Positions 43,175-64,000 of a stretch of 64,000 bases of DNA are shown piece by piece; positions within the stretch are counted from its first letter, which is position 1, and each line of letters starts with the position of its first letter. A program made the position numbers and the translations under genes. The notes beneath the pieces are model-generated. The model did not search any database, was not told the origin of the DNA, and was given only the letters and a program-made list of their open reading frames with translations. The stretch is taken from assembly GCA_963772865.1 (NCBI GenBank), contig CAVYZA010000021.1, positions 24,332 through 88,331 on the forward strand, written 5' to 3'. The DNA comes from an uncultured beta proteobacterium. GTDB lineage: Bacteria > Pseudomonadota > Gammaproteobacteria > Burkholderiales > SHXO01.

Positions 43175-43261
43175 CGTCCAACGCCGGTAACAGCTCTTGC
43201 CGCGGGGCGGCGGGAGTATACTGGGATGCGCTCGGCATCGGGCCGCATTCTGGGGGGCGTG

Positions 43262-43636: not shown

Positions 43637-43812
43637 GCGGCGCCCAGCAACCCGCACCGAGGCGATCCTCACGCCGCCGGGGCCATCGTCACAAACCAGT
43701 AACTTCGGTTCCCATCCAGGTGGCAATGGCCGAGCCCGACCTTCGCGGGCAACCCGGTGCCCACACCGGCCTTGTGCCCGGACGCAGAAACCTGTCCAAT
43801 ACGCCAGGGGCA

Positions 43813-43853
43813 TTGTTTCTAAAAGCACTCCCATTTGTTTCTACAAGCACTCC
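43813..43853 (+). promoter_or_regulatory. 19-bp direct repeat (22-bp period) abutting the permease RBS
   Basis: TTGTTTCTAAAAGCACTCC at 43813 and TTGTTTCTACAAGCACTCC at 43835. Confidence 0.55.
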
Positions 43854-43864
43854 AGGGGGGAATC

Positions 43865-45439
43865 ATGGCCAAACAACACTACGAGCAAAGCAAAGAGCAC
43901 GCAGAAGACCTGAAGACGCTGCACAGCATGGGCTATGCGCAGGAACTGCATCGGCGCATGGGCGGGTTTCAGAACTTCGCCATCTCGTTTTCCATCATCT
44001 GCATCCTGGCGGGCGGCATCACGGCTTTTCCGCTGTCGTTGAGCGCGGCGGGCGGTGCCTCGGTGGGATATGGCTGGCCCCTGGCCTCGCTGTTCGCCCT
44101 GATCGTGGCGGCCGCCATGGGACAGATCGCCTCCGCCTACCCGACGGCAGGCGGCATCTACCACTGGGCTTCTCTGCTCGGCGGACGCGGCTACGGCTGG
44201 GTGGCGGCCTGGTTCAATCTGCTCGGCCTGATGTTCGTGGTGTCGTCGGTGAACTTCGGCGTGTTCCTGCTGTTCCGGGACCTGTTCCTGGCCAACGTCC
44301 TTGGCATGGACGTGTCGAACTGGACCAGCAAGGAGACGTTCGATCACGGCTGGTGGGTGCAGACCATCTTCATCACCGTCATCACGATCAGCCAGGCGAT
44401 CCTCAATCACGTCGGCATCCGCGCCACCACCATCCTCACGGACTTCAGCGGCTACCTGATCTTCGTGTTCGCGACGCTCCTGACCGTGGCGCTGCTGTTC
44501 TACGCCCCGAGCATCGACCTGTCGCGGCTGTTCACCTTCAGCAATTTCTCCGGCGACGCAGGCGGCGGCGTCTGGCCGGTGGTGGTCCAGTCCACCGGGT
44601 TCATCTTCCTGCTGGGACTTCTCCAGGGCGTGTACACGATCACCGGCTTCGACGCGTCGGCGCACACCGCGGAGGAGACGCGCAATGCATCGCGCGAAGC
44701 CCCGCGCGGCATGATCCACTCCGTGTTCTGGTCCTTCCTGTTCGGCTACGTCATGATCGCCGCGTTCATCGTCGCCCTGCCCAGCGTCGAGGAAGGCGCC
44801 AAGCAGGGCTGGAACGCGTTCCCGTGGCTCATGAGCCAGTCGGCCATGCCGGTGGTGTTCAAGAACATCCTGATCATCGGCATCGTGATCGCCAACTACT
44901 TGTGCGCGCTCGCCGGCCTCACCTCTACCTCGCGCATGATGTTCGCCTTCTCCCGCGATGGCGGGTTGCCTTTCTCCAAAGCCCTGAGCCAGGTGAGCCG
45001 CAAGTACCGCACACCGGTCAACGCCATCTGGTGGGGAGCCATGCTGTCGATCGTCGCCACGCTGTACGGAAATGCCTTTGTCGTGCTGTCGACGGGCTGC
45101 GCGGTGTTTCTGTATCTGTCCTACCTGATGCCCATAGCGGCCGGGCTGCGGGCGGAAATGAACGGCACGTGGACGTCCAAAGGCCCCTTCCAGCTGGGTG
45201 CTTCGTCGAAGCTCGTGGCGGTTCTGGCGATCATCGGCTGCGCGCTGCTGATCTTCGTCGGTGTGCAGCCTCCGAACGAAAAGGTCGGCTACCTGATCGT
45301 CGCGATGCTGATCGCGATGGTCGTCATCTGGGCCGCCTTCGAGGTGAGGCGCTTCCGCGGTCCTCCGATCGGCGACATGATCGCCAAGCGGCAGGCTGAG
45401 ATCGCGGCGGCCGAGAAGGCGATCGGCGAAACGGCGTAG
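43865..45439 (+). CDS. APC-superfamily amino acid/amine permease (amino acid/choline transporter-like)
   Basis: GYAQELHRRMGGFQNFAISFS, PTAGGIYHW, GFDASAHTAEET, SRDGGLP; about 12 TM segments. Confidence 0.9.
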   Translation: MAKQHYEQSKEHAEDLKTLHSMGYAQELHRRMGGFQNFAISFSIICILAGGITAFPLSLSAAGGASVGYGWPLASLFALIVAAAMGQIASAYPTAGGIYHWASLLGGRGYGWVAAWFNLLGLMFVVSSVNFGVFLLFRDLFLANVLGMDVSNWTSKETFDHGWWVQTIFITVITISQAILNHVGIRATTILTDFSGYLIFVFATLLTVALLFYAPSIDLSRLFTFSNFSGDAGGGVWPVVVQSTGFIFLLGLLQGVYTITGFDASAHTAEETRNASREAPRGMIHSVFWSFLFGYVMIAAFIVALPSVEEGAKQGWNAFPWLMSQSAMPVVFKNILIIGIVIANYLCALAGLTSTSRMMFAFSRDGGLPFSKALSQVSRKYRTPVNAIWWGAMLSIVATLYGNAFVVLSTGCAVFLYLSYLMPIAAGLRAEMNGTWTSKGPFQLGASSKLVAVLAIIGCALLIFVGVQPPNEKVGYLIVAMLIAMVVIWAAFEVRRFRGPPIGDMIAKRQAEIAAAEKAIGETA

Positions 45440-45471
45440 ACCCGATCCCCGGCGGCGATTCGCGGTAAGCT

Positions 45472-45504
45472 GAAAAGTGGGGCGTGCGCCCCACTTTTCG
45501 TTTG
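45472..45504 (+). terminator. Strong hairpin / intrinsic terminator between the permease and downstream genes
   Basis: GAAAAGTGGGGCG-TG-CGCCCCACTTTTC followed by GTTTG. Confidence 0.7.
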
Positions 45505-45513
45505 TGAGTCCAG

Positions 45514-46890
45514 ATGACCTTCGATGTCGCGATCGTCGGGGCCGGTGTGGTGGGCTGCGCCATTGCACGCCGCCTGGCGTTGGGCGGGGCACGCTGTGTG
45601 CTCCTGGAACGAGGCGCGGACATCCTGTCGGGTGCGAGCAAGGGCAACAGCGCGCTCCTGCACACCGGCTTCGACAGCACTCCCGGCAGCCTGGAGGTGG
45701 CATGCATGCAGGCCGGCTATGCGGAGTATCTGCAGATCCGCGAGCGCCTCAACCTGCCCCTGATCGAGACCGGCGCGGTCGTGGTAGCCTGGACCGCCGC
45801 GGAGCGGGAACGCCTTCCGGGCATCGTTGCCCAGGCCCATGCCAATGGCGTGTTGGATGTGCGGCAGATCGCCCCGGCCGAGCTCTATGCGCGTGAGCCC
45901 AACCTCGCGCTGGGGGCACTCGGCGCCGCTGTCGTCCCCGGCGAGCACGTCATCGACCCTTGGTCGGCGCCGCTCGCGTACGTGCTTCAGGCGATGGCGC
46001 ACGGAGCGCAGGTCCGGCGCGGATGCCAGGTGACGGGAGGCCAGCTGGACGATGCGGGCTGGGTGCTCGCCACCGGGACGGGTCCCATCTCGGCGCGGGT
46101 CGTGATCAACGCAGCCGGCCTGTATGGCGACGTGATCGAGACCGTCGCGCGACCCTCGCCATTCGCCATCCGGCCGCGCAAAGGCCAGTTCGTGGTGTTC
46201 GACAAGCCCGCCTATCGGCTGGTGCGGTCGATCATTTTGCCGGTCCCCACCGAGCGGACCAAGGGCGTCGTGCTGGCCCGCACCGCCTTCGGCAACGTGC
46301 TGGTCGGCCCTACTGCCGAGGAGGTCGAGGAGCGCAGCCACGCCTCGGTGGACGAGACCGCGCTGCAGAGTCTGATCGACAAGGCGGTGGCGCTGATCCC
46401 TGCGCTGGCCAGCCACTCGGTCAACGCGGTCTACGCTGGCCTGCGGCCGGCCACGCAGTTCAAGGACTACCAGATCGCCGCACTGCCCGAGCGTCGCTGG
46501 ATCACGGTGAGCGGCATCCGCTCCACCGGACTCACCGGCGCGCTCGGCATCGCGCAGCACGTGGCCCGTCTGTACGGCGCGCATTTCGGCGCCCTCGAGG
46601 AGGCCGACGAGCCACAGTGGACACCGGTTCCCAACCTGTCCGAGGAGCGCCCGCGCGGCTGGCAGCAGTCCGATGCCGGCGAGATCGTGTGCCACTGCGA
46701 GCTGGTGACGCGCGCGGAGGTCGAGGCTGCGTTGTCCGGCCCCCTGCCGGCAGGCGATCTCGGCGGACTCAAGCGCCGCACCCGCTGCCTGATGGGTCGC
46801 TGCCAGGGCTTCTACTGCACCTGGCGGGTCGCGCAGCTCGCGGCGGGGCGGCTCGCGGATGTGCCCGCGCCGGGGAGGCAGGCCGCGTGA
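45514..46890 (+). CDS. FAD-dependent oxidoreductase with C-terminal BFD-like [2Fe-2S] domain (GlpA-like)
   Basis: GAGVVG, NSALLHTG, VCHCELV, KRRTRCLMGRCQGFYC. Confidence 0.85.
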   Translation: MTFDVAIVGAGVVGCAIARRLALGGARCVLLERGADILSGASKGNSALLHTGFDSTPGSLEVACMQAGYAEYLQIRERLNLPLIETGAVVVAWTAAERERLPGIVAQAHANGVLDVRQIAPAELYAREPNLALGALGAAVVPGEHVIDPWSAPLAYVLQAMAHGAQVRRGCQVTGGQLDDAGWVLATGTGPISARVVINAAGLYGDVIETVARPSPFAIRPRKGQFVVFDKPAYRLVRSIILPVPTERTKGVVLARTAFGNVLVGPTAEEVEERSHASVDETALQSLIDKAVALIPALASHSVNAVYAGLRPATQFKDYQIAALPERRWITVSGIRSTGLTGALGIAQHVARLYGAHFGALEEADEPQWTPVPNLSEERPRGWQQSDAGEIVCHCELVTRAEVEAALSGPLPAGDLGGLKRRTRCLMGRCQGFYCTWRVAQLAAGRLADVPAPGRQAA

Positions 46891-48157
46891 CAGAGCACCC
46901 GGTCCTGATCGTCGGTGCAGGACCCGCCGGCCTGTCCGCCGCTGCGCAGCTTGCGAGCCTGGGCATCGATGACGTCGTCGTCCTGGAGCGCGAACAGCAT
47001 GCCGGCGGCGTCCCGCGCCACTGTGGACACCGCGGGTTCGGCTGGCGCGAGTTCGCCCGGCTCCTTACCGGCCCGCGCTATGCAGAACGTCTGCTCGAGT
47101 CTGCCCGCAACGTGGTGGTCCGCACCGGTGTCGCCGTTGTGCGTGTCCACGCCGGGGGTGTTGTCGAGCTGGCGACGCCAGTCGGACCGGCAACGCTCAA
47201 GGGCCAGCGCGTACTGCTCGCGCTGGGCACGCGAGAGTCGCCTCGTGCCGCGAGACTCGTCTCGGGCAGCCGGCCCTGGGGTGTGGTCACCACCGGCGCC
47301 CTGCAGCAGATGGTCTACCTCGCGGACCTGCGTCCGTTCGAGCGAGCGGTCATCGTCGGCTCCGAGCTGGTGTCCTTCTCCAACCTGCTGACCATGCGGC
47401 ACGCACGCATCCGGGCATTGGCGCTCGTCGAGGAGCAGCCGCGCATCATCGCACCTGGGCCCGCACGCGCAATCGCGAGGCTCCTGTTCGGCGCGCGCGT
47501 GCTGACTGGGACGCGAGTGGTCGCGGTGCACGGCGGCGAGCGCGTCACCGGCATCGAGGTGGAGCGTGACGGGGCGCGCGAAATACTGGAGTGCGATGGC
47601 GTGGTATTCAGCGGGCGCTTCGTGCCGGAGTCGGCGATCCTGCAGTCGAGCCATCTCGCCCTGGACCCCGCCACCGGCGGACCGCGGTGGATCAGTACGG
47701 GCGCTGCTCCGATCCAACCTACTTTGCGGCCGGCAACCTGCTCCGGCCCGTGGAGCCGTCCTGGAACGCCTGGGAAGAGGGCCGCGCAGTGGCACGCGCG
47801 ATCGCAGCCAGCCTCCGTCGCGAGCTGCTCAACGCTGAGCGTTTCATTTCCATCCATGCGGAAGGTGCGGTGCGCTACGTGTGCCCGCAGCGCATCGCGC
47901 ATCCGGCGCCGCTGCCTTTCGCTCTCCCGATCAATCTGCGCGTAAGCCGGGAAGTCCACGGCCGCCTGCGCCTGTACAGCGGCTCTCGCGAGATCTGGAG
48001 CGCCCAGCGGCACCTGCTTCCGGAGCGGCGCATTCTGATTCCTGCGCCGGCGCACTTGCCTGTGGACATCGACTCGCTGATTGTCGATGTCGCCGCGGCG
48101 GCAGGCGCTCCGTCGTCACCTGCCACCAGTCACCAGTCACCAGTCACTCGCCAATGA
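46887..48157 (+). CDS. FAD/NAD(P)-dependent oxidoreductase, partner subunit; frameshift at ~47688
   Basis: GTGA overlap; GAGPAG, GGVPRHCGHRGFG, LTGPRYA, GTRE, AAGN. Confidence 0.82.
48124..48148 (+). repeat. Heptamer tandem (CACCAGT)3 at a gene junction
   Basis: CACCAGTCACCAGTCACCAGTCACT immediately before the kinase start. Confidence 0.8.
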
Positions 48158-49596
48158 CCATGTCTTTCGTCGTCGGCATCGACCAGGGTACCACCGGCAC
48201 GAAGGCCTACCGCCTGTCCGCGGACGGTCAGTTTGCTGCGCTTTGCGCAATGGAACACCGCCAGATCTATCCACGGCCGGGCTGGGTCGAGCACGATGGG
48301 CGCGAGCTGCTCGCCAGTGTCATGCGATGCCTGGGGGCGGCGGAAGGCGCTGCCGCCATCGGGATCGCGAATCAAGGCGAGACCGTGATCGCCTGGGATG
48401 CGGACAGCGGGGAGCCGCTGTGCAATGCGATCGTCTGGCAAGACAACCGCACCCAGGCCACGACAGAGCGGCTGAAGGCCGAGGGCGCCGAGCGCATGAC
48501 CCTCGAGCGCGCCGGGCTGCCGCTCGATCCGTATTTCTCGGCCTCGAAGCTCAAGTGGATTCTCGACAACGTGCCCGCCGCGGCGCAGCTCGCCGGCCGC
48601 GGGAGTCTTCGACTCGGAACGAGCGACGCATTCTTCCTGGATCGGGTGGGCGGCGTCTACGCGACCGACGTGACCACGGCTTCGCGCACCAGCCTCATGA
48701 ACCTGGCCACCGGGCAGTGGGACGCCGAGCTGTGCCGCTTGTTCGGCGTGCCCATCGAGCTGCTGCCGCCGATCCGCTCGACCGTGGGCGAGCTCGGACG
48801 CGCCGCCGTCAATGGTGTGGAAATCACCGCGAGCGCCGTCGATCAGCAGGCGGCGCTCTTCGGGCACGGCTGCCGCGCCCCGGGGCAAGCCAAGATCACG
48901 TTCGGCACCGGCGCGTTCGCCCTCGCCGTCACCGGAGGGCAGCCGGTAAGCGCACCCGAATCCGGGCTGCTGCCCACCGTCGCCTGGCGCATCGGCACGC
49001 AGACGACTTATGCAGTCGATGGCGGCGTCTACAACGCAGCCTCTGCGCTCGATTGGGCGCAACGGCTCGGGCTGTTCGCGCGGTTCGACGAGATCGAGCG
49101 CTTCGAGGCGGTGAGCGCCATCGAGCGGGGCATCGTGTTCGTCCCTGCGCTGTCCGGGCTCGCCTGCCCCTACTGGGATCGCAGCGCCGCGGGCCTGTGG
49201 GTGGGCATGGGATTGGAAACGTCGCGCCAGGACCTGGTGCAGGCGGTGCTCGAGGGCGTGGCCCTGCGCAGCGCACAGGCGATGGCGGCAATGCACGCGC
49301 GGCTGCCGCTCGCACCCATCGTGTCCGTCGACGGCGGGCTCTCGCGCAATCCCTACTTCTGCGAGTTTCTCGCGCGGGCTCTGAACCGTACCGTGGCCAT
49401 CCCCGCCACGGCCGATCTGACCGGCCTGGGGATCTCGCAGCTGGCCTACATCGGCGCGGGCTTGAGCTACGACGGGTCGGTCCCGCCCACGGCCGCACCC
49501 GAGCGCACGATCATGCCGAGCGCAGCATTGGCGGACGATCTGCACGCTCGCTTCGCGGACGCGGTGCAGCGGGCGCGCGGCTGGCGCAGCGCCTGA
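48154..49596 (+). CDS. FGGY-family carbohydrate kinase, glycerol-kinase-like
   Basis: IDQGTTG, QIYPRPGWVEHD, NQGET, AIVWQD, DPYFSASK, TTASRT, DQQAAL, KITFGTG, VDGG. Confidence 0.9.
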   Translation: MTMSFVVGIDQGTTGTKAYRLSADGQFAALCAMEHRQIYPRPGWVEHDGRELLASVMRCLGAAEGAAAIGIANQGETVIAWDADSGEPLCNAIVWQDNRTQATTERLKAEGAERMTLERAGLPLDPYFSASKLKWILDNVPAAAQLAGRGSLRLGTSDAFFLDRVGGVYATDVTTASRTSLMNLATGQWDAELCRLFGVPIELLPPIRSTVGELGRAAVNGVEITASAVDQQAALFGHGCRAPGQAKITFGTGAFALAVTGGQPVSAPESGLLPTVAWRIGTQTTYAVDGGVYNAASALDWAQRLGLFARFDEIERFEAVSAIERGIVFVPALSGLACPYWDRSAAGLWVGMGLETSRQDLVQAVLEGVALRSAQAMAAMHARLPLAPIVSVDGGLSRNPYFCEFLARALNRTVAIPATADLTGLGISQLAYIGAGLSYDGSVPPTAAPERTIMPSAALADDLHARFADAVQRARGWRSA

Positions 49597-49610
49597 AGTA
49601 TCCTGGATCG

Positions 49611-50516
49611 ATGCCCATGGATCACCAGCCTCTCGACCGCATCCTGCAGCTGCCTTGCTGGTCTGGCAGGGTCGATCCCGCACCGCTGCTCGGCGGGATC
49701 ACCAACAAGAACTACCTGGTCGCCGACCGCGGGCAGAAATTCGTCGTGCGCCTGGGTCAGGACATTCCGATCCACGGCGTGATGCGCTTCAACGAGCTGG
49801 CCGCGAGCCGCGCAGCGTTCGAGGCGGGCGTCTCGCCCGAGGTCGTCTACGCCGAGCCCGGAGCGCTCGTGCTGCGTTACATCGAGGGGCGTGCGTTGTC
49901 GCCCGAGCTGGTGCGCGACCCCGCGCTTCTTCCGGGCGCAGTGGATCTGATCAAGCGCTGCCATGAGCAAGTGCCCCGCCATCTGCGCGGGCCATCGCTG
50001 GTGTTCTGGGTGTTCCAGGTCATTCGCGGCTACGCGACCGAGCTGCAGGCGTGCGCGAGCCCGCATGTCGAGGCGCTTCCCCAGCTCATCGAGCGCGCCG
50101 AGCGGCTCGAGCGCGAAGTCGGACCGGTGTCCATCGTCTTCGGCCACAACGATCTGCTGGCCGCCAACTTCATCGACGACGGCAAGCGCCTCTGGCTGAT
50201 CGACTGGGACTACGCGGGATTCAACAGCCCGCTGTTCGATCTCGGCGGCCTGGTTTCCAACAGCGAGCTCGGTGAGGATCAAGCCCGGTTCGTGCTGGAA
50301 CGCTACTTCGGCAAGGTCGATCTGGGACTGCAGCGACGATTCGCGGCGATGAAATGCGCGTCGCTGCTGCGCGAGACCATGTGGAGCATGGTGTCGGAGG
50401 TCTACTCGAAGATCCAGTTCGACTACGCCGCCTACACCAGTGATTACCTGGCGCGCTTCACACGCGCTTACGACGAGTTCACGGAGTTCGACGAGCTCTC
50501 CGGGAGCGTACGATGA
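49611..50516 (+). CDS. Choline/ethanolamine kinase-family phosphotransferase
   Basis: GGITNKNY, Brenner motif HNDLLAAN, LIDWDY (C-terminal part of ORF 48081-50516). Confidence 0.85.
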   Translation: MPMDHQPLDRILQLPCWSGRVDPAPLLGGITNKNYLVADRGQKFVVRLGQDIPIHGVMRFNELAASRAAFEAGVSPEVVYAEPGALVLRYIEGRALSPELVRDPALLPGAVDLIKRCHEQVPRHLRGPSLVFWVFQVIRGYATELQACASPHVEALPQLIERAERLEREVGPVSIVFGHNDLLAANFIDDGKRLWLIDWDYAGFNSPLFDLGGLVSNSELGEDQARFVLERYFGKVDLGLQRRFAAMKCASLLRETMWSMVSEVYSKIQFDYAAYTSDYLARFTRAYDEFTEFDELSGSVR

Positions 50517-52960
50517 CCACGCCTCCCTCGGCTGCGCAGGTGGTCATCATCGGTGGCGGCATCATCGGGTGCAGCACGGCCTATCATCTGGCGCGCGCGG
50601 GCTTCAAGGACATCGTGCTGCTCGAGCGCGCGAAGCTCACCAGCGGCTCGACCTGGCATGCCGCCGGCCTGGTCGGTCAGCTTCGCACGTCTGCGAACGT
50701 GACACAGCTTCTCAAGTACAGCGTCGAGCTGTACGACAAGCTGGAACAGGAAACCGGCCTGGCGACCGGCTGGAAGCGCAACGGCGGCTTGCGCCTCGCC
50801 TGCAATCCGGAGCGGCTGGTCGAGATCAAGCGTCAGGCGACGACCGCCCATAGCTTCGGATTGGAAATGCATCTGCTGTCGCCGGCCGAGGCGAAGGCGC
50901 TCTGGCCGATCATGGACAGCTCCGATGTCGCAGGGGCCGCGTTTCTGCCCACCGATGGGCAGGCCAATCCTTCCGATATCGCGCAAGCGCTCGCCAAGGG
51001 CGCGCGCATGCAAGGCGTCAAGATCGTGGAGGATTGCCCGGTCATCGGGATTCAGCTCGACAGCGGTCGCGTATCGGCTGTAGAGACCTCGCACGGCGTG
51101 ATCCGCACCGAGATCGTCGTCAATTGCGCGGGGCAGTGGGCCAGGCAGATCGGACAACTCGCCGGAGTCAACGTTCCGCTGGTCTCGGTGCAGCATCAGT
51201 ACATCGTGACCGAGCCGATAACCGGCGTGCCCAAGAACCTCCCCACCTTGCGCGATCCGGACCGGCTGATCTATTTCAAGGAAGAGGTCGGCGGGCTGGT
51301 CATGGGAGGCTATGAGCCGAATCCGATTCCGTGGGCGGAGCAAGGCATTCCAGACGGCTTCGAGTTCCAGCTCCTGAGCGAGGACTGGGACCATTTCGAA
51401 CCGATCATGACTGCAGGCCCTGGCGCGGGTGCCCGCGCTGGAAAAGGCGGGCATCAAGCAACTCATCAATGGGCCGGAGTCGTTCACGCCGGACGGCAAC
51501 TTCATCCTCGGCGAGGCGCCCGAAGTCAGGGGCTTCTACGTCGGCGCCGGCTTCAACGCCTTCGGCATCGCCTCCGCCGGCGGTGCGGGACGGGCGCTGG
51601 CCGAGTGGATCGCCGCCGGCGAGCCGCCCATGGACTTGTGGCCGGTCGACATCCGGCGCTTCGGCCGACACCATCGTTCGGAGCGCTGGGTGCGCACACG
51701 CACGCTCGAGGCCTATGCCAAGCACTACACGATGGCGTGGCCGTTCGAAGAGTATCGCAGCGCCCGTCCGCTGCGCGTGTCACCGCTCTACCAGCGGCTG
51801 AAGGATCAGGGCGCGTGCTTCGGCGAGAAGCTCGGATGGGAGCGGCCCAACTGGTTCGCGCCGCCCGGCGTCGAACCGAAGGATATCTATACCTATGGCC
51901 GGCAGAACTGGTTTCCTTACGTCGCCACGGAGCATCAGGCCTGCCGCGAGCGCGTCGCGCTGTTCGATCAGACCAGCTTCGCCAAGTTCCTGCTGATCGG
52001 CGAGGACGCCGAACGGGCCCTGCAGTGGATCTGCGCCAACGATGTCGGCAAACCGCCGGGGAGTCTCACGTACACGCAGATGCTGAACGCGCGCGGTGGA
52101 ATCGAGTGCGATCTCACCGTCGCGCGACTGTCGCCAGACCGAGTACTACATTGTTACCGGCACGGGGTTCGCCACCCACGACTTCGCCTGGATTCGCCGG
52201 AACATCCCGCCGGACTGCGCGGATGCCACTCTGGTCGACGTCACCTCGGCCTATTGCGTGCTGGCGCTGATGGGCCCGAGAGCGCGCGACGTACTGACAC
52301 AGGTGACTCACGCGGACTTGTCCAATGCGGCCTTCCCGTTCGGCGCATGGCGCGAGATCGACGTCGCTGGCGCGCTGGTGCGCGCGCTGCGTGTGACCTA
52401 CGTGGGCGAGCTGGGCTGGGAGCTGCACATACCCGTCGAGTCCGCCCTCGTTGTGTATGAACGCTTGATGGAAGCCGGCAAGCAACACGGGATCGTCAAC
52501 GCGGGCTATCGCGCGATCGAGTCGCTGCGGCTCGAAAAGGGGTACCGCGCCTGGGGCAGCGATATCGGCCCGGACCACACGCCGCTCGAGGCGGGACTGG
52601 CGTGGGCGGTCAAGCTCGCCAAGGGCACCGTTCCTGGGGCGTGACGCGCTGCTGGTGCAGCAGTCGCAACCATTGAAGAAGCGCCTGGCCTGCTTCACGG
52701 TGGACGACCCCAGCGTCGTGCTGCTTGGGCGCGAAACGATCTATCGCGACGGACAACGCGTGGGATGGCTCTCCAGCGCAGGGTGGGGTTACACCGTAGG
52801 CAAGAACATCGGCTTCGGTTACGTCCGCAACGCGGCCGGCGTGGACGATACCATGCTGACCTCGGGCAACTATGAGCTCGAGGTTGCTGCCGAACGCATC
52901 GCCTGCCAGCTGTATCTTGGGGCGCTCTACGATCCACGCGCGGCGCGAGTGAAAGCTTGA
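50513..52960 (+). CDS. GcvT-family dimethylglycine/sarcosine-dehydrogenase-like FAD/folate amine oxidoreductase; frameshifts at ~51410, ~52140, ~52630
   Basis: GGGIIG, GSTWHAAG (covalent-FAD His), GPESFTPDG, GWERPNWF, YVGELGWELH, SLRLEKGY, YDP...VKA end. Confidence 0.92.
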
Positions 52961-53310
52961 GCGCGGGTTGCTGGTCGCGATGGCCTTGCCGTCCTGCACG
53001 CCCGGCCTGACTATGATCTGCGCTGCCCGCCCAGGTACCGAAGTAGGTAAAACGCAGAGCGCGGCAGCAGCAAATGAATCTACCGCCCTGTGCTCTGCCG
53101 GCGACAACATCCCGAAGGACTGACAAAACGTGTGCCTTCGGGACGGTGTCGCGAAACAGCACCGGATGGGAAATTCAAGCGTCTCCAGAGCGACATACGG
53201 CGCGCGATCGGCCGCACCCCAACCTTCTCTCTACGGCCTGGATCCTGAGCGTACGATACTTGCTTGCCCACTACGCACCGATTGACGGATAAGGGACGCC
53301 TGTTTTTGCC

Positions 53311-54383
53311 ATGCCAGCAAGAAATCACCAGGGTCCAGCGACGCCTCAGCGCCACGCCTCCATTCTGGCTGCGGCGCTGATATCGGTCACCACCGCGCTC
53401 GGCAGCGTCGTCGCCGCCACCAGCATCCAGGGCGGCGCGATCCCGGGCCCGCTGCCGCTGTTTCCGCGCGACAACTGGTGGAACCTGGATATCTCGCGAC
53501 TGCCGGTGGATCCTGCTTCGGCCAGCTACATCAACTTCATCGGACCGACGAAGACACTCCACCCCGATTTCGGCGGCAACGTCTCATCGGGCAGCGCGCA
53601 GGTATACGGCTTTCCGTACGCTGTCGTCGACAGCACGGTAACGCCGCGCGCCGTCCAGTTTCAATACGCGAGCGAAAGCGACGGAGTCGACCACACTACC
53701 AACCGGAGTGTCCCGTTCTACCCGATTCCCGACGAGGCGATCACGCAGTCGCATTGGATCGAGGGCGGCGATCCGGGCAACGTCGACCTGCGCGCGAGCG
53801 GCGACCGCCACCTGCTCATCGTCGATCGCGAGCGGCGCTATCTGTACGAGCTCTACAACGTGTTCTACGACGGCAGCCAGTGGCGCGCCGGCTCCGGCGC
53901 GTTCTTCGACCTGAACGCCAACGGGCGCCGCCCGGACGGCTGGACCTCGGCCGACGCCGCCGGGCTGGCGATCCTGCCGGGGCTGGTGCGATATGACGAG
54001 GTGTCTCGGGCCCGACGAGATCCGTCACGCGCTTTCGCGTGACGGTGCGCGCGACCAACGGCTATGTCTTCCCGGCGTCCCATCGTGCCGGCTCGACCGC
54101 TGGCGCCCTGCCGATGGGCGCGCGGCTGCGGCTGAAGGCGAGCCGCAACCTCTCCACGTTCACACCGGAAGTGCAGAAGATCTTCCGCGCAATGCAGCGC
54201 TACGGCCTGATCGTCGCCGACAACGGCTCCGACCTGTACGTGAGCGGAACCTACGACACGCGTTGGAACAATGATGTGCTCAACCCGGCCTTCCGCGCGC
54301 TGACGGCGAACGACTTCGAGGTGATCCTGCTCGGCGTTCGACCTCTTCCCGCGCCGACCAACCTGCGCATCACGGATCAATAG
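53311..54383 (+). CDS. Secreted hypothetical protein; frameshift(s) at ~54005-54040
   Basis: Signal-like N-terminus; FPRDNWWN, GDRHLL, WTSADAAGL, LPMGARLRL, YGLIVADNG; ends PAPTNLRI. Confidence 0.75.
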
Positions 54384-54559
54384 CCGGAAGTATCCGTCTA
54401 GTTTCGCAGCTCGTTCCACGAGCGGGCGCCGGCCCCAACGCCGTCAACATCCAGTTGCGTCGCGGACCGTCTACACTTGGCGAAGGTCGACCTTTCCTAC
54501 TCTCCGAGCCGCCGGCCAAGCCGGCTAGCCCGGATATTTCATCAGGACGATCGAGAACC

Positions 54560-56062
54560 ATGAATCAACCAGAAACCCACATCGTGGCTCCGCCCGGCAA
54601 GATAGAGGCCTTCGATGTCGTGATCGTCGGAGCGGGCATCTCGGGCATCGGTGCTGCCTATCACCTCACCCAGCAGTGCCCCGCCATGCGCTTCATTGTT
54701 CTGGATGCGCTGGAAGGTTTCGGCGGCACATGGCGCACACACCGCTTTCCGGGCATCCGCTCGGACAGCGACCTGTATACCTTCGGCTATGCCTTCAAGC
54801 CGTGGACGGGGGCACCCATCGCAACGGCCGCCGAGATCCTGCGCTATCTAGGGGAAGTCATCGACGAGAATGACCTTGCCCCGCACATCCGGTATCACCA
54901 CAGGATCTCTTCGGCACGCTGGTCCAGCCGCGAGAATCTCTGGACGCTCGATGCCACCCGGATGGATACCGGGGAAACAGTCCGGTTCAGCGCAAACTTT
55001 CTCTGGATGTGCCAGGGATATTACCGGCACTCGCGGGGCTACACACCCGAGTGGAACGCAATGGAGACATTCAAGGGCCGCATCGTTCACCCGCAGACCT
55101 GGCCGGAGGACCTGGACTACGCTGGCAGGCAAGTCGTCGTCATCGGTTCTGGCGCCACCGCAGCGACGCTCATTCCGGCGATTGCGGCCGACTGCGCGCA
55201 TGTCACGATGCTGCAGCGCTCGCCGACGTTTTTCAGGACGGGCCGCAATGCGATTGCGATCGCTGACGAGCTGCGCGCGCTCGACATAGACGAGACCTGG
55301 ATCCACGAAATCGTACGCAGGAAGATTCTGTACGAGCAAGACGTGTTCACCCGCCGGACGTTCACGGAACCGGAGGTCGTGAAACAGGAACTGCTCGAGG
55401 CAGTGCGTGCATACCTGGGGTCGAACTACGACGTGCAGACCCACTTCACGCCGCGCTACCGGCCATGGCGGCAACGTATCGCCTTTATTCCCGACGGCGA
55501 CCTGTTCCAGGCGGTGCGCTCCGGTAAGGCATCGGTGGTCACCGATGAAATCGACCACTTCATGCCGACCGGCATTGTTTTGAAATCCGGCAAGGTTCTC
55601 GAAGCGGACATCATCGTCACCGCCACGGGCTTCAATCTCAATGTGCTCGGCGACATCGACTTCGTCATTGACGGCAAACCCCTGGTCTTCTCCGATACAG
55701 TCACCTATCGCGGCACGATGTTCACCGGGGTTCCCAACCTGGCGTGGGTCTTCGGTTACTTCCGGGCGAGCTGGACGCTGCGGGCAGACATGATCGGCGA
55801 GTTCGTCTGCCGGTTGCTCAATCACATGAAAAAGATAGGCGCAAGCAAAGTCACGCCGACGCTTCGCCCAGAGGACAAGGACATGCGGTTGCTGCCCTGG
55901 ATCGATCCGGAGAACTTCAATCCCGGCTATCTCATGCGCAGCATGGATCTGCTGCCGAAACGTGGCGACAAGCCCGCATGGCAGCACACCCAGGATTACT
56001 GGGCCGAAAAGGACGAGTTCCCCGCGATCGACCTCGACGACCCGGCGTTCGTCTATGAGTGA
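54560..56062 (+). CDS. Baeyer-Villiger / flavin monooxygenase, EthA-like
   Basis: GAGISG, GGTW, PGIRSDSD, FKGRIVHPQTWP (FxGxxxHxxxWP), GSGATA, ATGF, ASWTL. Confidence 0.92.
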   Translation: MNQPETHIVAPPGKIEAFDVVIVGAGISGIGAAYHLTQQCPAMRFIVLDALEGFGGTWRTHRFPGIRSDSDLYTFGYAFKPWTGAPIATAAEILRYLGEVIDENDLAPHIRYHHRISSARWSSRENLWTLDATRMDTGETVRFSANFLWMCQGYYRHSRGYTPEWNAMETFKGRIVHPQTWPEDLDYAGRQVVVIGSGATAATLIPAIAADCAHVTMLQRSPTFFRTGRNAIAIADELRALDIDETWIHEIVRRKILYEQDVFTRRTFTEPEVVKQELLEAVRAYLGSNYDVQTHFTPRYRPWRQRIAFIPDGDLFQAVRSGKASVVTDEIDHFMPTGIVLKSGKVLEADIIVTATGFNLNVLGDIDFVIDGKPLVFSDTVTYRGTMFTGVPNLAWVFGYFRASWTLRADMIGEFVCRLLNHMKKIGASKVTPTLRPEDKDMRLLPWIDPENFNPGYLMRSMDLLPKRGDKPAWQHTQDYWAEKDEFPAIDLDDPAFVYE

Positions 56063-56150
56063 GACAACAGCGGTCTCGCGAAACTCGGGATCTCACTGGG
56101 TAACCGTAGAAAATTGCTTAGCGCTGTCGCCGAGTTGAACGCCCAAGAGG
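56063..56150 (+). pseudogene. Remnant resembling a SAM domain of an adenylate/guanylate-cyclase-type protein
   Basis: Translates DNSGLAKLGISLGNRRKLLSAVAELNAQE with no start codon. Confidence 0.5.
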
Positions 56151-56382
56151 GAGGCGGCCAAGAGAATTACGCGTTGACAGAACTGCTGCCGCAACAGGTT
56201 TGAGGTCCTTGTCCTCCCAGAATTGATCGACGCTCCGTCGTTTCATAAGCAGCCCACTCTGAACATCACAACGTCCTCCAGCTCGCGCGTTCCTGGCGTA
56301 CCTGGTTGCGACGGATAGGCTAAAGTAGGGGCGGGCTGCACAGGGCGCTAACATCTCAACTCCAACTTCGACCGAGCCATTC

Positions 56383-57750
56383 ATGAGACCCGAGGACGTC
56401 AAGACCGCCACCGACGCCAGGAAGATCGTAGAGGAGCGCAACCTCACGCACGTCAAGGTCGGCGTGTTCGACATCGAGGGCGTCCTGCGCGGAAAGTACA
56501 TGTCGCGCGAGAAGTTCTTCAGCGCGCTGGACAAGGGCTTCGGCTTTTGCGACGTGGTGCTGGGGTGGGATTCCAACGACCAGCTTTATGACAACACGCA
56601 GTACACGGGGTGGCACACCGGCTATCCGGACGCCGCCGTGCGCATACTGCCCGGATCCTGCCGCGACATCCCGTTCGAGCCCGGGATGCTGTTCTTCCTC
56701 GCCGAGTTCGTCGAAGAGCGCGACGTGCCCTGCCCGCGCGGGCTGCTGCGCCGGGTGCTCGACAAGGCGCGGAGCATGGGCTTCGAGGTATACGCCGGCT
56801 TCGAGTACGAGTACTTCGTGTTCGACGAGACACCGGACTCGGTGCGGGCGAAGCACTACCGCGACCTCAAGCCGATCGCACCCGGCTTCTTCGGCTATTC
56901 GGTGATCCGCAACTCGGTCCACTCCGAGCACTATTTGGAGACGCTGGACCTGTGCGAGAAGATGCGCTTCCCGCTGGAAGCCCTCCACGAGGAGACCGGT
57001 CCGGGGGTGCTGGAGGCCGCCATCGCGGTGGACCGCGGCCTGGAAGCCGCCGACAAGGCCGCGCTGTTCAAGACCTTCATCAAGGTCCACGCCCAGCGCA
57101 AGGGCCGCATCGCGACGTTCATGGCGAAATGGTCGCCCGACTATCCGGGCCAGAGCGGCCATATCCACGTCTCTCTCAAAGGACGCGACGACAAAGCGGC
57201 CTTCCATGACGCCGCCGATGCACATGGAATGAGCGCGCTGATGAAGCAGTTCGTTGCCGGACAGCATGCGCTGATGCCGGAATTGCTCGGCATGATCGCC
57301 AGCACCGTCAACTCCTACTCCCGGCTGGTGCCCGGCTTCTGGGCGCCGACCCACGCCACCTGGGGGGTGGAGAACCGCACTTGCGCGCTGCGCGTGATAC
57401 CGGGGTCGGAGAAGAGCCAGCGCGTCGAGTACCGCATCGCTGCCGCCGACGCCAATCCGTATCTGGCGTTGGCCGCCGCGCTCGGCTCCGGGCTCTGGGG
57501 CATCGAGCACCAGCTCGAGCCGGGCAAGCCCGTCAGCGGCAATGCCTACGAACAGAAGCCGCAGGCGAAGCACGCTCTGCCCGGCACCCTGTGGGAAGCA
57601 GCGCAGCGGTTGAAAGCATCGAAAGCGGCGCGCGACCTGTTCGGCGACGCCTTCGTCGAGCACTTCGCCGCCACCCGCGAGTGGGAAGAGCGCCAGTTCC
57701 GCAAGGCGATCACCGATTGGGAGCTGGCGCGCTACTTCGAAATCATCTAG
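56383..57750 (+). CDS. Glutamine synthetase-like gamma-glutamyl-amine ligase
   Basis: LRGK, FEYEY, HEETGPGVLE, GQSGHIHVSL, NSYSRL, ENR, VEYR. Resembles GlnA-like gamma-glutamylases rather than housekeeping GSI. Confidence 0.9.
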   Translation: MRPEDVKTATDARKIVEERNLTHVKVGVFDIEGVLRGKYMSREKFFSALDKGFGFCDVVLGWDSNDQLYDNTQYTGWHTGYPDAAVRILPGSCRDIPFEPGMLFFLAEFVEERDVPCPRGLLRRVLDKARSMGFEVYAGFEYEYFVFDETPDSVRAKHYRDLKPIAPGFFGYSVIRNSVHSEHYLETLDLCEKMRFPLEALHEETGPGVLEAAIAVDRGLEAADKAALFKTFIKVHAQRKGRIATFMAKWSPDYPGQSGHIHVSLKGRDDKAAFHDAADAHGMSALMKQFVAGQHALMPELLGMIASTVNSYSRLVPGFWAPTHATWGVENRTCALRVIPGSEKSQRVEYRIAAADANPYLALAAALGSGLWGIEHQLEPGKPVSGNAYEQKPQAKHALPGTLWEAAQRLKASKAARDLFGDAFVEHFAATREWEERQFRKAITDWELARYFEII

Positions 57751-57808
57751 AGCAAGTCAGTTGCAAGGTGTGCCCTTATCGTTCGGAGCCACGCCCGTCC
57801 CGAGAACC

Positions 57809-59206
57809 ATGACTGAGACACAGAAAACCATCTCCCCGGTCGACGGTCGGGTCTACGTCGAACGGCCGCTCGCGACCGACGCCGAGATCGGCCGCGTGCT
57901 GGAGCGCGCGCGAGCGGCGCAGGTAAAGTGGAAGCAAACGAAGCTCGCGGAGCGCGCGGCGATCGTTACGCGCTTCATCGACGCATTCGTTGCGCGCAAG
58001 CCAGCAGATCGCGGAGGAGGTCTCCTGGCAGATGGGCCGGCCGATCGGCCAGTCGCCCGGCGAGGTGCGCGGGTTCGAGGAGCGTGCGCGCCATATGGTC
58101 GCGATCGCGCCACAAGCACTCGCTGACCTGGATGCCGGCCCGAGAGAGGGCTTCCGCCGATTCATCCGTCGCGAGCCCCTCGGCGTGGTGCTGGTGATGG
58201 CGCCGTGGAACTACCCGTACCTGACCTCGGTGAACTCGGTGGTCCCCGCGCTCATGGCCGGCAACGCGGTGGTGTTGAAGCATTCCAGTCAAACGCCGCT
58301 CTGCGCGGAGCGATTTGCCGACGCGTTCCGGGAGGCAGGATTGCCGGAAGGCGTATTCCAGTTCGTGCACTGCACCCACGAACAGTCCACGCGCATGATC
58401 GCCTCGCCTCTGCGTCGACTTCGTGGCCTTCACCGGCTCGGTTGCAGGCGGTCAGGCGGTGCAGCGGGCGGCGTCGGACCGCTTCATCGCCACCGGGCTC
58501 GAGCTGGGCGGCAAGGACCCCGCCTACGTGCGCGCCCGACGCGGATCTCGCGCACGCCGTGGAGAACCTGGTCGACGGCGCCATGTTCAATTCCGGGCAG
58601 TCCTGCTGCGGCATCGAGCGAATCTATGCTCACCAGAAGGTCTACGACGCTTTCGTGGAAGGCTATCGTGGAGCTCAGCCGCCAGTACCGGCTCGGCAAT
58701 CCGCTCGATACCAGCGTCAACCTCGGCCCGATGGTGCGCGCACGCGCCGCCGACTTCGCCCGTGGCCAGGTGCGCGAGGCGATTGCCGCAGGCGCGCAAT
58801 CCCTGATCGACCCCGAAGCGTTTCCGTCCGACCGGGAGGGCACGCCCTACATGGCGCCGCAGGTACTGGTGAGCGTCGACCACTCGATGCGACTGATGAG
58901 CGAGGAGAGCTTCGCGCCGGTCGATCGGCATCATGAAGGTGGCGAGCGACGAGGAAGCCATCGCGCTGATGAACGACAGCCGAGTACGGCCTCACCGCCG
59001 CGATCTGGACCTCCGACGTGGACGCGGCCCTGTCGATAGGCGAGCGCGTGGAAACCGGCACCTGGTTCATGAACCGCTGCGACTACCTCGATCCCGCGCT
59101 CGCCTGGACCGGCGTGAAGAACTCCGGGCGCGGCTGTACGCTCTCGGTAGTGGGCTACGAGCAGCTCACTCGGCCCAAGTCGTTTCACCTTCGGGTCAAG
59201 ACGTGA
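57809..59206 (+). CDS. Aldehyde dehydrogenase; multiple frameshifts
   Basis: PWNYP, LKHS, FTGS, LELGGKDP, NSGQSCCG (catalytic Cys), EESF, GVKNSG. Confidence 0.88.
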
Positions 59207-59219
59207 CCCGATTACTCCC

Positions 59220-60398
59220 ATGACCATCGACCCGAAGACCCTCGTCCGCAACTGGAACTACCCCACTGCCGTGCGCTTCGGCGCTGGACGGATCGCAGAG
59301 CTGCCCGCTGTATGCAAGGAGCTGAGCATGCGCAGGCCTCTGCTCGTGACCGACCCCGGGCTGCGCAAGCTGCCGATGATCGAGCGCGCACTCGCGTCGC
59401 TGCGGAGTGCCGGCCTGGGCGACACGGTGTTCTCGGACATCCGGGCCAATCCAGTCGGGAAGAATGTCGAAGATGGCGTGGCTTTCTACAAGGGGCAGGG
59501 TTGCGATGGTGTCATCGCCTTTGGCGGCGGCAGCGCGCTGGACGTCGGCAAGACCATCGCGCTGATGGCTGGGCAAACGCGTCCATTGTGGGATTTCGAG
59601 GATCGCGAGGACTGGTACACACGGGTGAACGTGGCAGGCGTGGCACAGACTATCGCCGTTCCCACCACGGCGGGCACCGGCTCCGAAGTGGGCCGCGCCT
59701 CGGTCATCCTCGACGAAGCCAGCCATCTGAAGAAGATCATCTTCCACCCCAGGATGCTGCCGGCTGTGGTGATTGCCGACCCCGAGCTCACGCTGGGGCT
59801 GCCACCCCGCATCACGGCGGCCACCGGCATGGATGCGCTCGCCCATTGCCTGGAAGCTTACTGCGCGCCGGGGTTTCACCCGCTCGCCGACGGCATTGCG
59901 CTCGAGGGTATGCGCCTCATCAAGGAGTGGCTGCCGGTCGCGGTCAAGGACGGCAGCAACGTGACGGCGCGCGCGCACATGATGGCCGCGGCGAGCATGG
60001 GTGCAACCGCTTTCCAGAAAGGGCTTGGCGCCATCCATTCGCTCAGCCATCCGGTAGGCGCGCACTACAACACGCACCATGGCGAGACCAACGCGGTCGT
60101 GATGCCCTACGTCCTCGCATTCAACCGCCCCGCTATCGAGGATCGGATGACGCGGCTCGCGCGTTACCTGGACTTGCCCGACCCCGGCTTCGCCGCGGTG
60201 CTTGCCTGGGTGCTTGCGCTGCGCCAGGAGATCGGCATTCCCAACACGCTCACCCAGCTCGGGGTCAAGGAGAGCGACCTCGACGTGCTGGTCCCGGAAG
60301 CCGTGGAGGATCCCTCCACGGGCGGCAACCCGCGGCCAGCGGGGGCCGCTGAGATGCGCGAGATGTTCGTCAATGCCATCCACGGGCGGCTGCCCTAG
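59220..60398 (+). CDS. Iron-containing alcohol dehydrogenase
   Basis: GGGSALD, PTTAGTGSE, DALAH, HSLSH, HHG. Confidence 0.93.
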   Translation: MTIDPKTLVRNWNYPTAVRFGAGRIAELPAVCKELSMRRPLLVTDPGLRKLPMIERALASLRSAGLGDTVFSDIRANPVGKNVEDGVAFYKGQGCDGVIAFGGGSALDVGKTIALMAGQTRPLWDFEDREDWYTRVNVAGVAQTIAVPTTAGTGSEVGRASVILDEASHLKKIIFHPRMLPAVVIADPELTLGLPPRITAATGMDALAHCLEAYCAPGFHPLADGIALEGMRLIKEWLPVAVKDGSNVTARAHMMAAASMGATAFQKGLGAIHSLSHPVGAHYNTHHGETNAVVMPYVLAFNRPAIEDRMTRLARYLDLPDPGFAAVLAWVLALRQEIGIPNTLTQLGVKESDLDVLVPEAVEDPSTGGNPRPAGAAEMREMFVNAIHGRLP

Positions 60399-60433
60399 GC
60401 CATCGCACTCGCGGCCGAGCGCTCAGCGTCTCG

Positions 60434-62713: not shown

Positions 62714-62817
62714 ACACGACCGCCCACGCGGGTCGTCGGGACCCGGCGGGTGAAGGGGCAAGCTACCAACGCGACCAGGTGTCGCAACAACGCGCGTCGA
62801 CGGCGCTGACGGTGCCG

Positions 62818-63938: not shown

Positions 63939-64000
63939 TGCGTCGCCAACGCGAGCGCCGCGACCGGCATGGACTTGGTCCGAGGTTTCGTGACAGAGAA

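Follow-up and report, generated by a model that had tools for sequence, protein, structure and literature searches.

A candidate catabolic island for ethanolamine-type amino alcohols, built from separable gene modules, in an uncultured beta proteobacterium

A run of eleven genes at positions 43865-60398 of the DNA analysed here (64,000 nucleotides of contig CAVYZA010000021.1, assembly GCA_963772865.1, from an uncultured beta proteobacterium of the order Burkholderiales; hereafter the window, and its genome G000) appears, with about even confidence, to be a working gene island for the catabolism of ethanolamine-type amino alcohols, in which four modules that recombine between genomes have come together and in which the frame breaks are assembly errors. 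The modules are an amine permease (M1); a Glp-like triad of two flavoproteins and an FGGY-family kinase (M2); a choline-kinase-like (ChoK-like) gene with a dimethylglycine-dehydrogenase-like (DMGDH-like) gene (M3); and a glutamine-synthetase-like (GlnA-like) ligase with an aldehyde dehydrogenase (ALDH) and an iron-containing alcohol dehydrogenase (Fe-ADH) (M4). Two of them, each combining a kinase with flavoenzymes, probably supply a route from ethanolamine to glycine with N-methylated and glycerol-like amino alcohols. M4 is that route and is already known; the M3 pair and the M2 module are uncharacterised so far as we searched the literature. Those searches, with most subscription journals outside their coverage, found no paper on the kinase-demethylase pair and none on a glycerol-kinase-like module among ethanolamine or amino-alcohol genes. 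Below, G020 and G017 are same-genus relatives of the window genome, and L-numbers denote fetched loci.

Results

A choline-kinase-like gene and a demethylase-like gene travel together

A profile of 14 ChoK-like orthologues led to at least 587 confirmed stretches in a species-genome collection, and the best 80 loci (55-87% identity) were analysed. Stop-to-stop open reading frames (ORFs) fuse in GC-rich DNA and merge clusters, and individual loci were therefore re-read. Each neighbour cluster takes its name from the Pfam matches of a single representative, and the neighbour counts are lower bounds because many loci stop at contig ends. A DMGDH-like gene lies 3' of the ChoK-like gene, on the same strand and at a gap of -60 to +250 nucleotides (nt), in 71 of the 80 loci, which span Alpha-, Beta-, Gamma- and Deltaproteobacteria; the outliers are L084 (DMGDH-like gene at +884), L093 (a gap of 288 nt), and L077 and L034 (1.6 and 4.5 kb away). 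With adjacency in at least these 71 loci, the co-occurrence of ChoK-like and GcvT/DMGDH-like genes, which an earlier sequence-only reading of the window had proposed as a check, held at the level of the module.

The genes around the pair include an OpuAC-type binding protein upstream of M3 (26 loci), a DeoR regulator (14), an ALDH (12) and an APC permease (10), followed by a class-III aminotransferase, an IMPase-family phosphatase, a GlnA-like gene and an Fe-ADH (7 loci each). The order in Kiloniella laminariae is DeoR, OpuAC binding protein, ABC ATPase, fused permease, ChoK-like, DMGDH-like, Fe-ADH. In Kiloniella (L091, L042) an orthologue of the Fe-ADH stands directly 3' of the pair, and L030, L065 and L079 have one within the cluster (57-62% identity throughout). 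A collinear arrangement of permease, ChoK-like, DMGDH-like, GlnA-like and ALDH genes, in some cases with the Fe-ADH, was read in L030, L065 and L051, and the same set in another order in L079 and L077, so that the expected company of GlnA-like, ALDH or Fe-ADH genes was indeed found beside the pair in several distant genomes. That M4 genes or an Fe-ADH repeatedly accompany M3 is consistent with ethanolamine being what M3 yields. Orthologues of the M1 permease, 48-53% identical, also adjoin the pair in Methyloceanibacter-type loci.

Two loci carry tandem copies, ChoK-DMGDH-DMGDH-ChoK at L068:10001-16719 and ChoK-DMGDH-ChoK at L044:10001-14305, as if kinase and demethylase duplicate together, one pair per methylation state. 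M3 occurs without M2 in 76 of the 80 loci; in the same-genus relative G017 the permease, ChoK-like and DMGDH-like genes are directly adjacent and intact, without Glp-like genes, beside ORFs that by eye resemble sucAB-lpd. The order permease-M2-M3 was seen in five genomes: the window, G020, L015, L016 and L018 (L018 and L019 each duplicate a contig that was also reached otherwise and are counted once, and L019 is the G020 contig).

In five rhizobial loci (Rhizobium and Rhizobiales: L043, L074, L076, L081, L082), the stretch roughly 1-6.5 kb 5' of the kinase holds, in place of the OpuAC importer, a GFO/IDH/MocA oxidoreductase and an ABC system of sugar type with an SBP_bac_1/8 binding protein and a MalK-like ATPase. 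These neighbours hint at a polyol-like or opine-like amine substrate in rhizobia.

The M3 kinase matches Pfam Choline_kinase at 60.9 bits (gathering threshold 29), and its HNDLLAAN and DWDY motifs (H179-N180-D181...N186; D198-W199-D200), which we take to be the phosphotransfer motifs HxDxxxxN and DxD, do not vary across 14 aligned orthologues. Among solved proteins the kinase scores best with 3DXQ (97.6 bits), and its best NCBIfam match is the GntI N-oxide kinase at 159.9 bits, below the cut-off of 357. The second gene of the pair, M3b, is split in the window into four collinear pieces, which match the intact 815-amino-acid (aa) orthologue of G017 at 74-89% identity. That orthologue aligns over its full length with rat DMGDH (4PAB, 598 bits) and keeps His48 of DMGO, which binds flavin adenine dinucleotide (FAD) covalently, together with the His225/Tyr259 dyad; the STWHAAG, VQHQY and LIYFKE motifs can be read in the window frames themselves. 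The catalytic His/Tyr dyad is named in PMC5082570. The window pieces gave DAO, FAO_M and GCV_T matches, and an intact Kiloniella orthologue gave all four domains including GCV_T_C. DMGDH, SARDH and DMGO have no curated equivalog model to score M3b against.

In Kiloniella, the best solved relative of the binding protein at L091:5844-6854 is 4XZ6 (268 bits), which we take to be the trimethylamine N-oxide-binding protein TmoX. Because of this match and the GntI match, an amine N-oxide might be considered as a substrate of M3, a distant possibility that we note in passing, neither score being anywhere near identity.

A glycerol-kinase-like module stands among ethanolamine genes

Of 400 other genomes of the order, 13 had orthologues of M2a (57-76% identity), and flanks were fetched for all 13. 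The permease adjoins the triad in 11 of them, at 78-86% identity in nine and about 58% in two. The FGGY paralogue is likewise present in 11; one contig ends first, and L118 is without it within 19.9 kb. EutA and a fused EutB-EutC lie 3' of the kinase in L109, L110, L111 and L117, and an EutB-like gene in L119. GlnA-like genes (49-64% identity) fall in the same cluster in six (L109-L111, L118, L120 and L121), with a complete GlnA-like/ALDH/Fe-ADH triad divergent from the M2-permease block in L120 and L121. L115 alone repeats the permease-M2-ChoK-DMGDH order of the window. At least one ethanolamine-type module (Eut, GlnA-like or ChoK-DMGDH) is therefore near M2 in nine of the 13 Burkholderiales genomes, and the proposed co-occurrence of an NQGE-type FGGY kinase and two flavoproteins with ethanolamine genes was recovered. 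Among the other four, three contigs end at or inside the module. Within the fetched flanks, M2 occurs without M3 in 12 of the 13.

Three details of these loci are recorded here in their own right. At L110:13650-17338, EutA and then a single 734-aa EutB-EutC ORF (ethanolamine ammonia-lyase large and small subunits) stand directly behind the kinase paralogue. In L114:566-8574 about 8 kb separate the partner flavoprotein gene from the FGGY paralogue, which are adjacent everywhere else. An M81-family (MlrC-like) metallopeptidase lies 3' of the GlnA-like/ALDH/Fe-ADH genes at L120:15614-18289 and L121:14835-16277, followed in L120 by a LysR regulator; the peptidase may substitute for the formylglutamate-amidohydrolase-type gamma-glutamyl-glycine hydrolase of Streptomyces.

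A metagenome scan kept 80 loci, of which seven were paralogue-type (52-63% identity); the motif was NQGET in nine and NQRET in 69. One metagenome contig, L126, carries GlnA-like, ALDH, DAO+BFD, partner and FGGY genes in that order, with a permease upstream and an Fe-ADH downstream.

M2a matches Pfam DAO at 189 bits and Fer2_BFD at 26.7 bits. In NCBIfam it scores 198.5 bits against the type-2 glycerol 3-phosphate (G3P) oxidase NF033460 (cut-off 460) and 133.9 against GlpA TIGR03377 (cut-off 552.8), reaching neither cut-off. Its best solved relative is Mycoplasma pneumoniae GlpO (4X9M, 119 bits), and in the alignment the equivalents of GlpO His51, Lys258 and Arg320 are all identical; we take Lys258 and Arg320 to be phosphate-binding. 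His51 is the proposed catalytic base (PMC10726252). The GlpB and GlpC partner subunits are not present in M2: the partner is a Pyr_redox_2 flavoprotein (about 409 aa in its intact L110 orthologue), and no third gene precedes the kinase.

The M2 kinase scores 417.7 bits against the GlpK model TIGR01311 (417.3 when the whole genome was searched), below the cut-off of 590. A canonical GlpK is encoded elsewhere in G020, G058 and G097 (710-716 bits), genomes in which the paralogue scores 384-408 bits; in G000, an incomplete genome, the paralogue is the only GlpK-type match found. The sequence-only reading had counted an ordinary glycerol kinase among the outcomes that would undo its proposal, and on these scores and the separate GlpK of three relatives the FGGY kinase is not one. 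In all three M2 kinases aligned with the canonical GlpK of G097 and G020, Gly replaces Arg (NQGET), and the Glu, Trp, Tyr, Asp and Phe positions of the glycerol site are kept. The glycerol-binding residues of Escherichia coli GlpK are presumably Arg83, Glu84, Trp103, Tyr135, Asp245 and Phe270.

The permease and the gamma-glutamylation genes

M1 matches Pfam AA_permease_2 at 170.6 bits, and its best NCBIfam match, TIGR00907, reaches 233 bits, below the cut-off of 598. Judged from these profile matches, it is placed closest to the GABA/choline-type subfamily and outside the ethanolamine-permease equivalog.

The M4 ligase matches Pfam Gln-synt_C at 330.9 bits and stays below every NCBIfam cut-off (GlnA 219 against 429, gamma-glutamylputrescine synthetase 192 against 650). 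The closest protein of solved structure is 5DM3 (230 bits), which we take to be the Chromohalobacter salexigens enzyme. A glutamine-synthetase-like ligase that is not a glutamine synthetase, with an ALDH 58 nt and an Fe-ADH a further 13 nt downstream, is the GlnA4-type arrangement. Its combination with ALDH and Fe-ADH cannot be called undescribed, since the pathway is already published (PMC6529630, PMC10132767). The first proposes that a permease, a dehydrogenase, an aldehyde dehydrogenase, GlnA4 and an amidohydrolase of Streptomyces coelicolor yield glycine, and also cites the gamma-glutamylation route of Chromohalobacter salexigens; the second has the same enzyme set of Phaeobacter induced by phosphoethanolamine. 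A gamma-glutamyl-glycine amidohydrolase was not recognised at 60399-64000 (by eye; one ORF was Pfam-scanned, without a match), and an FGase-family gene lies on contig C9 of G000.

Layout of the island

Every real gene of 43865-60398 is on the + strand (Table 1), and the gene list, order and coordinates of the sequence-only reading, nine named genes and two inserted ones, were confirmed. From the permease to the GcvT-family gene the spacings are 74, -4, -4, 14 and -4 nt, so its claim of overlapping or near-overlapping stop and start codons holds for 45514-52960: the M2b start overlaps the M2a stop by 4 nt, the M2b stop overlaps the M2c start by 4 nt, and the M3b start overlaps the M3a stop (ATGA). 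The two extra genes are set off by wider spacings of 350, 179 and 320 nt, and within the ligase-ALDH-Fe-ADH group the genes are 58 and 13 nt apart.

Table 1. Genes of the island, with window coordinates and domain matches
Gene	Position	Strand	Domain matches
M1, APC-superfamily amine permease, 524 aa	43865-45439	+	Pfam AA_permease_2
M2a, GlpO-like FAD dehydrogenase with C-terminal BFD-like [2Fe-2S] domain, 458 aa	45514-46890	+	Pfam DAO, Fer2_BFD
M2b, NOX-like partner flavoprotein	46887-48157	+	Pfam Pyr_redox_2
M2c, FGGY glycerol-kinase paralogue, 480 aa, NQGET for NQRET	48154-49596	+	Pfam FGGY_N, FGGY_C
M3a, choline/ethanolamine-kinase-family phosphotransferase, 301 aa	49611-50516	+	Pfam Choline_kinase
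M3b, predicted DMGDH-type FAD/folate N-demethylase, ~815 aa	50513-52960	+	DAO, FAO_M, GCV_T (separate frames)
Hypothetical, probably secreted protein, ~355 aa	53311-54383	+	no Pfam or NCBIfam match
Baeyer-Villiger-type flavin monooxygenase, FKGRIVHPQTWP motif	54560-56062	+	weak Pfam FMO-like, Pyr_redox matches
M4a, predicted glutamine-synthetase-like gamma-glutamyl-amine ligase, 455 aa	56383-57750	+	Pfam Gln-synt_C
M4b, aldehyde dehydrogenase	57809-59206	+	Pfam Aldedh 163 bits, one frame
M4c, iron-containing alcohol dehydrogenase, 392 aa	59220-60398	+	Pfam Fe-ADH, ADH_Fe_C

The hypothetical protein and the monooxygenase, which is presumably marked as Baeyer-Villiger-type by the FKGRIVHPQTWP motif in its translation, are outside the conserved modules. 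Among the 80 ChoK loci both are present only in L019, the G020 contig, where the hypothetical protein is about 85% identical and again neighbours the monooxygenase; none of the other loci examined has this protein. The first block and the GlnA-like block of G020 lie 11.5 kb apart.

Trypsin-like peptidase, enolase-superfamily and DegT-type aminotransferase genes lie 5' of the island. On its 3' side there are, by eye, a lipase-like ORF and then an mfd-like gene on the opposite strand, and among the flanking ORFs inspected no regulator or amidohydrolase adjoins it. A scan of 43000-61000 gave no promoter-like sites (1.6 expected) and ten terminator-like ones (8.4 expected). A search of public sequencing runs for the window found at most 0.19 of the sampled words shared.

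Frame breaks

Ten single-base indels and one further frame break fall within the 16.5 kb, leaving four of the eleven genes out of frame. The indels were called by comparison with the G020 contig, which is 83-90% identical. One base is missing from the partner flavoprotein at about 47681 (a three-frame read; one gap against G020), and extra bases sit in the GcvT-family gene at 51412, 52133 and 52626 and in the ALDH at 58002, 58413, 58534, 58666, 58922 and 58980; the frame of the hypothetical gene breaks near 54005-54032. Against G020 the ALDH shows seven single-base gaps, the G020 copy being in one frame from residue 26 on. Homopolymers were considered as a cause of the frameshifts and set aside: only the 47681 deletion lies in a short C run, and the nine insertions lie outside runs of five or more. 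As a separate example of indel error, the mfd-like frame at 60908-62817 (- strand) runs, by eye, over at least three frames.

Discussion

From the gene associations observed we infer the following chemistry. The permease would import amines. The M3 kinase would phosphorylate N-methyl- or N,N-dimethyl-ethanolamine, and the DMGDH-type enzyme would oxidatively remove methyl groups from the phosphate ester, passing the one-carbon (C1) unit to tetrahydrofolate and yielding phosphoethanolamine, which would be dephosphorylated before ethanolamine enters M4. An order of phosphorylation and then demethylation is suggested by the constant overlapping-codon pairing of the two genes, by their joint duplication and by their DeoR and phosphatase neighbours, the 14 DeoR and seven IMPase-family loci among the 80 being what we cite for phosphate-ester intermediates. 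Flavin amine dehydrogenases need a lone pair on nitrogen, and the substrates of M3b would therefore be dimethyl- and monomethyl-ethanolamine phosphate and not phosphocholine. Methylated ethanolamines had been among the substrates named in the sequence-only reading; they stand as the best guess for the kinase-demethylase pair.

By homology to the published route, M4 would take ethanolamine through gamma-glutamyl-ethanolamide and gamma-glutamyl-aminoacetaldehyde to gamma-glutamyl-glycine, with the final amidohydrolase presumably encoded outside the island. M2 would act on a second, glycerol-like amino alcohol, carried as its phosphate ester to a product at the level of triose phosphate. Serinol, 3-aminopropane-1,2-diol and ethanolamine are candidates; serinol would give dihydroxyacetone phosphate (DHAP) and ammonia directly, and ethanolamine would give phosphoglycolaldehyde. 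We prefer an amino alcohol to glycerol because the cationic Arg is lost, an amine permease is attached and the neighbourhood is one of ethanolamine genes. A phosphate ester resembling G3P is suggested for the M2 dehydrogenase because the phosphate-binding and catalytic residues are conserved.

Each module has a known counterpart. M4 resembles S. coelicolor SCO1610-1615 and the eto genes of Phaeobacter sp. MED193, in which, according to PMC6529630 and PMC10132767, a ligase, an alcohol dehydrogenase and an ALDH lie beside an amine transporter. It differs from those published clusters, so far as they are described there, in that the window is without an adjoining amidohydrolase or regulator and has two extra modules joined, and in that its transporter is an APC permease where that of Phaeobacter is a TRAP system (PMC10132767).

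For M3 the nearest parallel is the MthK/MthB/MthC/MthA choline:tetrahydrofolate methyltransferase system of Eubacterium limosum, in which, according to PMC12155760, phosphorylation comes first, the phosphocholine is N-demethylated by a corrinoid system and the methyl carbon goes to tetrahydrofolate. M3 as proposed would share with MthK/MthB the logic of kinase first and demethylation second, with the C1 unit passed to tetrahydrofolate. However, the kinase is serine-kinase-like in E. limosum and of the choline-kinase family in M3, and the demethylase is there a corrinoid MttB-family enzyme acting on quaternary phosphocholine in an anaerobe and here of the FAD/folate DMGDH type (PMC12155760 for E. 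limosum). No corrinoid or MttB-family Pfam match was found among the scanned island genes. M3b shares with DMGDH, SARDH and Arthrobacter globiformis DMGO (4PAB, 5L46, 1PJ5) the four-domain architecture, the FAD-binding His, the His/Tyr dyad and the folate domain; unlike these known enzymes it has a kinase gene as its partner, which holds for at least 71 of the 80 loci.

M2 recalls the Thermococcus-type GlpTk-NOX-MOX system, described in PMC11962113 as a DAAO-fold G3P dehydrogenase with a NOX-like partner, in placing an FGGY kinase beside such a dehydrogenase and flavoprotein. M2a also carries a BFD-type Fe-S domain at its C-terminus, as GlpA does. M2 differs from both GlpTk-NOX-MOX and GlpABC in having Gly for the glycerol-binding Arg, in occurring as a paralogue beside a canonical GlpK and in lacking MOX or GlpC; and, unlike in Glp systems, an amine permease leads and ethanolamine genes lie around. 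Short eut operons of Proteobacteria consist of a permease and EutBC with or without EutA, and in four relatives the permease-M2 block precedes EutA and the fused EutB-EutC. M2 genes between the permease and eutA were not part of any eut operon found in our literature searches. The window itself holds no eut genes, and a tblastn search of the whole of G000 (65% complete) with EutA and EutBC was empty.

Several observations weigh against our reading. Five of the 80 ChoK loci have no DMGDH-like gene in the 3.6-10 kb downstream. L116, the remaining M2 carrier, shows no match to the ethanolamine-module queries in the 3.1 kb beyond its kinase. In the metagenome loci L128 and L130, whose kinases are 52-55% identical, the triads neighbour ABC binding proteins and a divergently transcribed DeoR regulator, and the permease, GlnA-like, ALDH and Fe-ADH queries matched nothing there; this setting fits an ordinary glycerol-phosphate-type role and counts against a strict link between M2 and ethanolamine. 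None of ten island proteins reached the cut-off of any NCBIfam model, and neither the phosphatase nor the gamma-glutamyl-glycine hydrolase that the scheme calls for is encoded in the window. M3b, finally, is the sole DMGDH-type gene found in G000, where a different contig carries the genes of a heterotetrameric sarcosine oxidase; for these reasons it could simply be the organism's dimethylglycine dehydrogenase, and its similarity to mammalian DMGDH might, from the alignment score, be about that of a true orthologue.

This last point leads to the best-surviving alternative, which we consider unlikely but worth serious weight: the island would hold ordinary enzymes side by side for the salvage of phospholipid head groups, with no new chemistry. 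M2 would then be a second glycerol kinase and G3P dehydrogenase for the glycerol moiety, M4 would handle ethanolamine, M3b would be the normal DMGDH of a path from choline through glycine betaine to dimethylglycine, and the Fe-ADH and ALDH would act as GbsB and GbsA. Besides the status of M3b in G000, its 598-bit match to the rat enzyme through the G017 orthologue and its retained catalytic residues suit such a salvage role; so do the catalytic and phosphate-binding residues that the M2 dehydrogenase shares with GlpO, the distant M2 triads beside DeoR regulators and ABC binding proteins, as in glp regulons, and the OpuAC-type importers upstream of M3 in 26 of 80 loci. The Fe-ADH matches the GbsB choline dehydrogenase model at 261 bits, yet this is far below the cut-off of 550. 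Ordinary salvage also leaves the ChoK-like kinase unexplained, although that gene is the most constant partner of the DMGDH-like one, with overlapping codons. Nor does it account for an FGGY kinase that is without the glycerol-binding Arg, falls short of the GlpK cut-off and has a true GlpK elsewhere in three of the four carriers tested.

Rather improbable, in our estimation, is a variant in which the first operon (43865-52960) is itself a B12-independent ethanolamine route running on phosphate esters. The Arg-to-Gly paralogue would be an ethanolamine or amino-alcohol kinase, M2a and the NOX-like flavoprotein would together act as a phospho-amino-alcohol dehydrogenase, and M3 would feed in phosphoethanolamine; phosphoethanolamine would give phosphoglycolaldehyde and ammonia, or serinol phosphate would give DHAP and ammonia. 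Such a route would explain why M2 follows an amine permease and has Eut, gamma-glutamyl or demethylation genes for neighbours.

The sequence-only reading had instead imagined a single imported N-substituted amino-polyol, phosphorylated by both kinases and split by the GcvT enzyme into a C3 part for the Glp-like module and ethanolamine for gamma-glutamylation. All modules are co-oriented, the permease through the GcvT gene resembles one operon, and the permease-M2-M3 order recurs in four other genomes (L015, L016, L018, L019). We nevertheless find this scheme very unlikely. It fails because the modules occur independently: M3 without M2 in 76 of the 80 ChoK loci and in G017 of the same genus, M2 without M3 in 12 of the 13 order genomes within the fetched flanks, and the first block 11.5 kb away from the GlnA-like block in G020. 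The known DMGDH/GcvT enzymes, moreover, transfer C1 units to folate and not C3 units.

Our reading of a working island also requires that the indels in its four broken genes be assembly errors and not gene decay, which we take to be most likely for four reasons. The essential genes rpoB and rpoC of G000 (C14:35989-44361, outside the window) are each likewise split into two adjoining pieces in different frames. Marker-gene completeness is only 64.7% at 38 contigs. G020 has breaks of its own at other sites, in the GcvT-family gene and also in the enolase-superfamily and monooxygenase genes, which are intact in the window. And substitutions between the window and G020 favour codon position 3 by 3-18 times over positions 1 or 2 in 14 of 14 segments, the broken genes equalling their intact neighbours. 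In addition, the collinear M3b pieces matching G017 contain no in-frame stop codons. The indel-rich assembly means that apparent pseudogenes in G000 need a caveat in general. Against this, the six indels in 1.4 kb of ALDH are denser than the roughly one per 4 kb in rpoB and rpoC, which leaves a small chance that the ALDH alone is truly decaying. That the partner flavoprotein, the GcvT gene and the ALDH are all true pseudogenes, in an island no longer working in this organism, is the least probable explanation of all, for its one support, ten indels and a further break crowded into 16.5 kb where rpoB and rpoC have one break each, is outweighed by the points just given.

Every membrane releases ethanolamine, its N-methylated forms and related amino alcohols, which in soil and sea link the cycles of carbon, nitrogen, phosphorus and C1 units. 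The kinase-demethylase pair is found in hundreds of species, with relatives in at least 587 candidate stretches that include isolates of Rhizobium, Roseovarius, Labrys and Kiloniella. Cultured carriers of M3 include strains of Rhizobium leguminosarum and R. phaseoli, Kiloniella laminariae DSM 19542 and Tistlia consotensis. If it is true that M3 acts on phosphate esters, the pair would be an aerobic counterpart of the corrinoid system of a gut acetogen reported in 2025 (PMC12155760). The Arg-less glycerol-kinase paralogue, with an amine permease adjoining in 11 of 13 genomes and ethanolamine genes around it, points to a second, undescribed entry into amino-alcohol metabolism. Both ideas are directly testable, since M3 is present in named isolates and M2 in a relative whose genome is closed.

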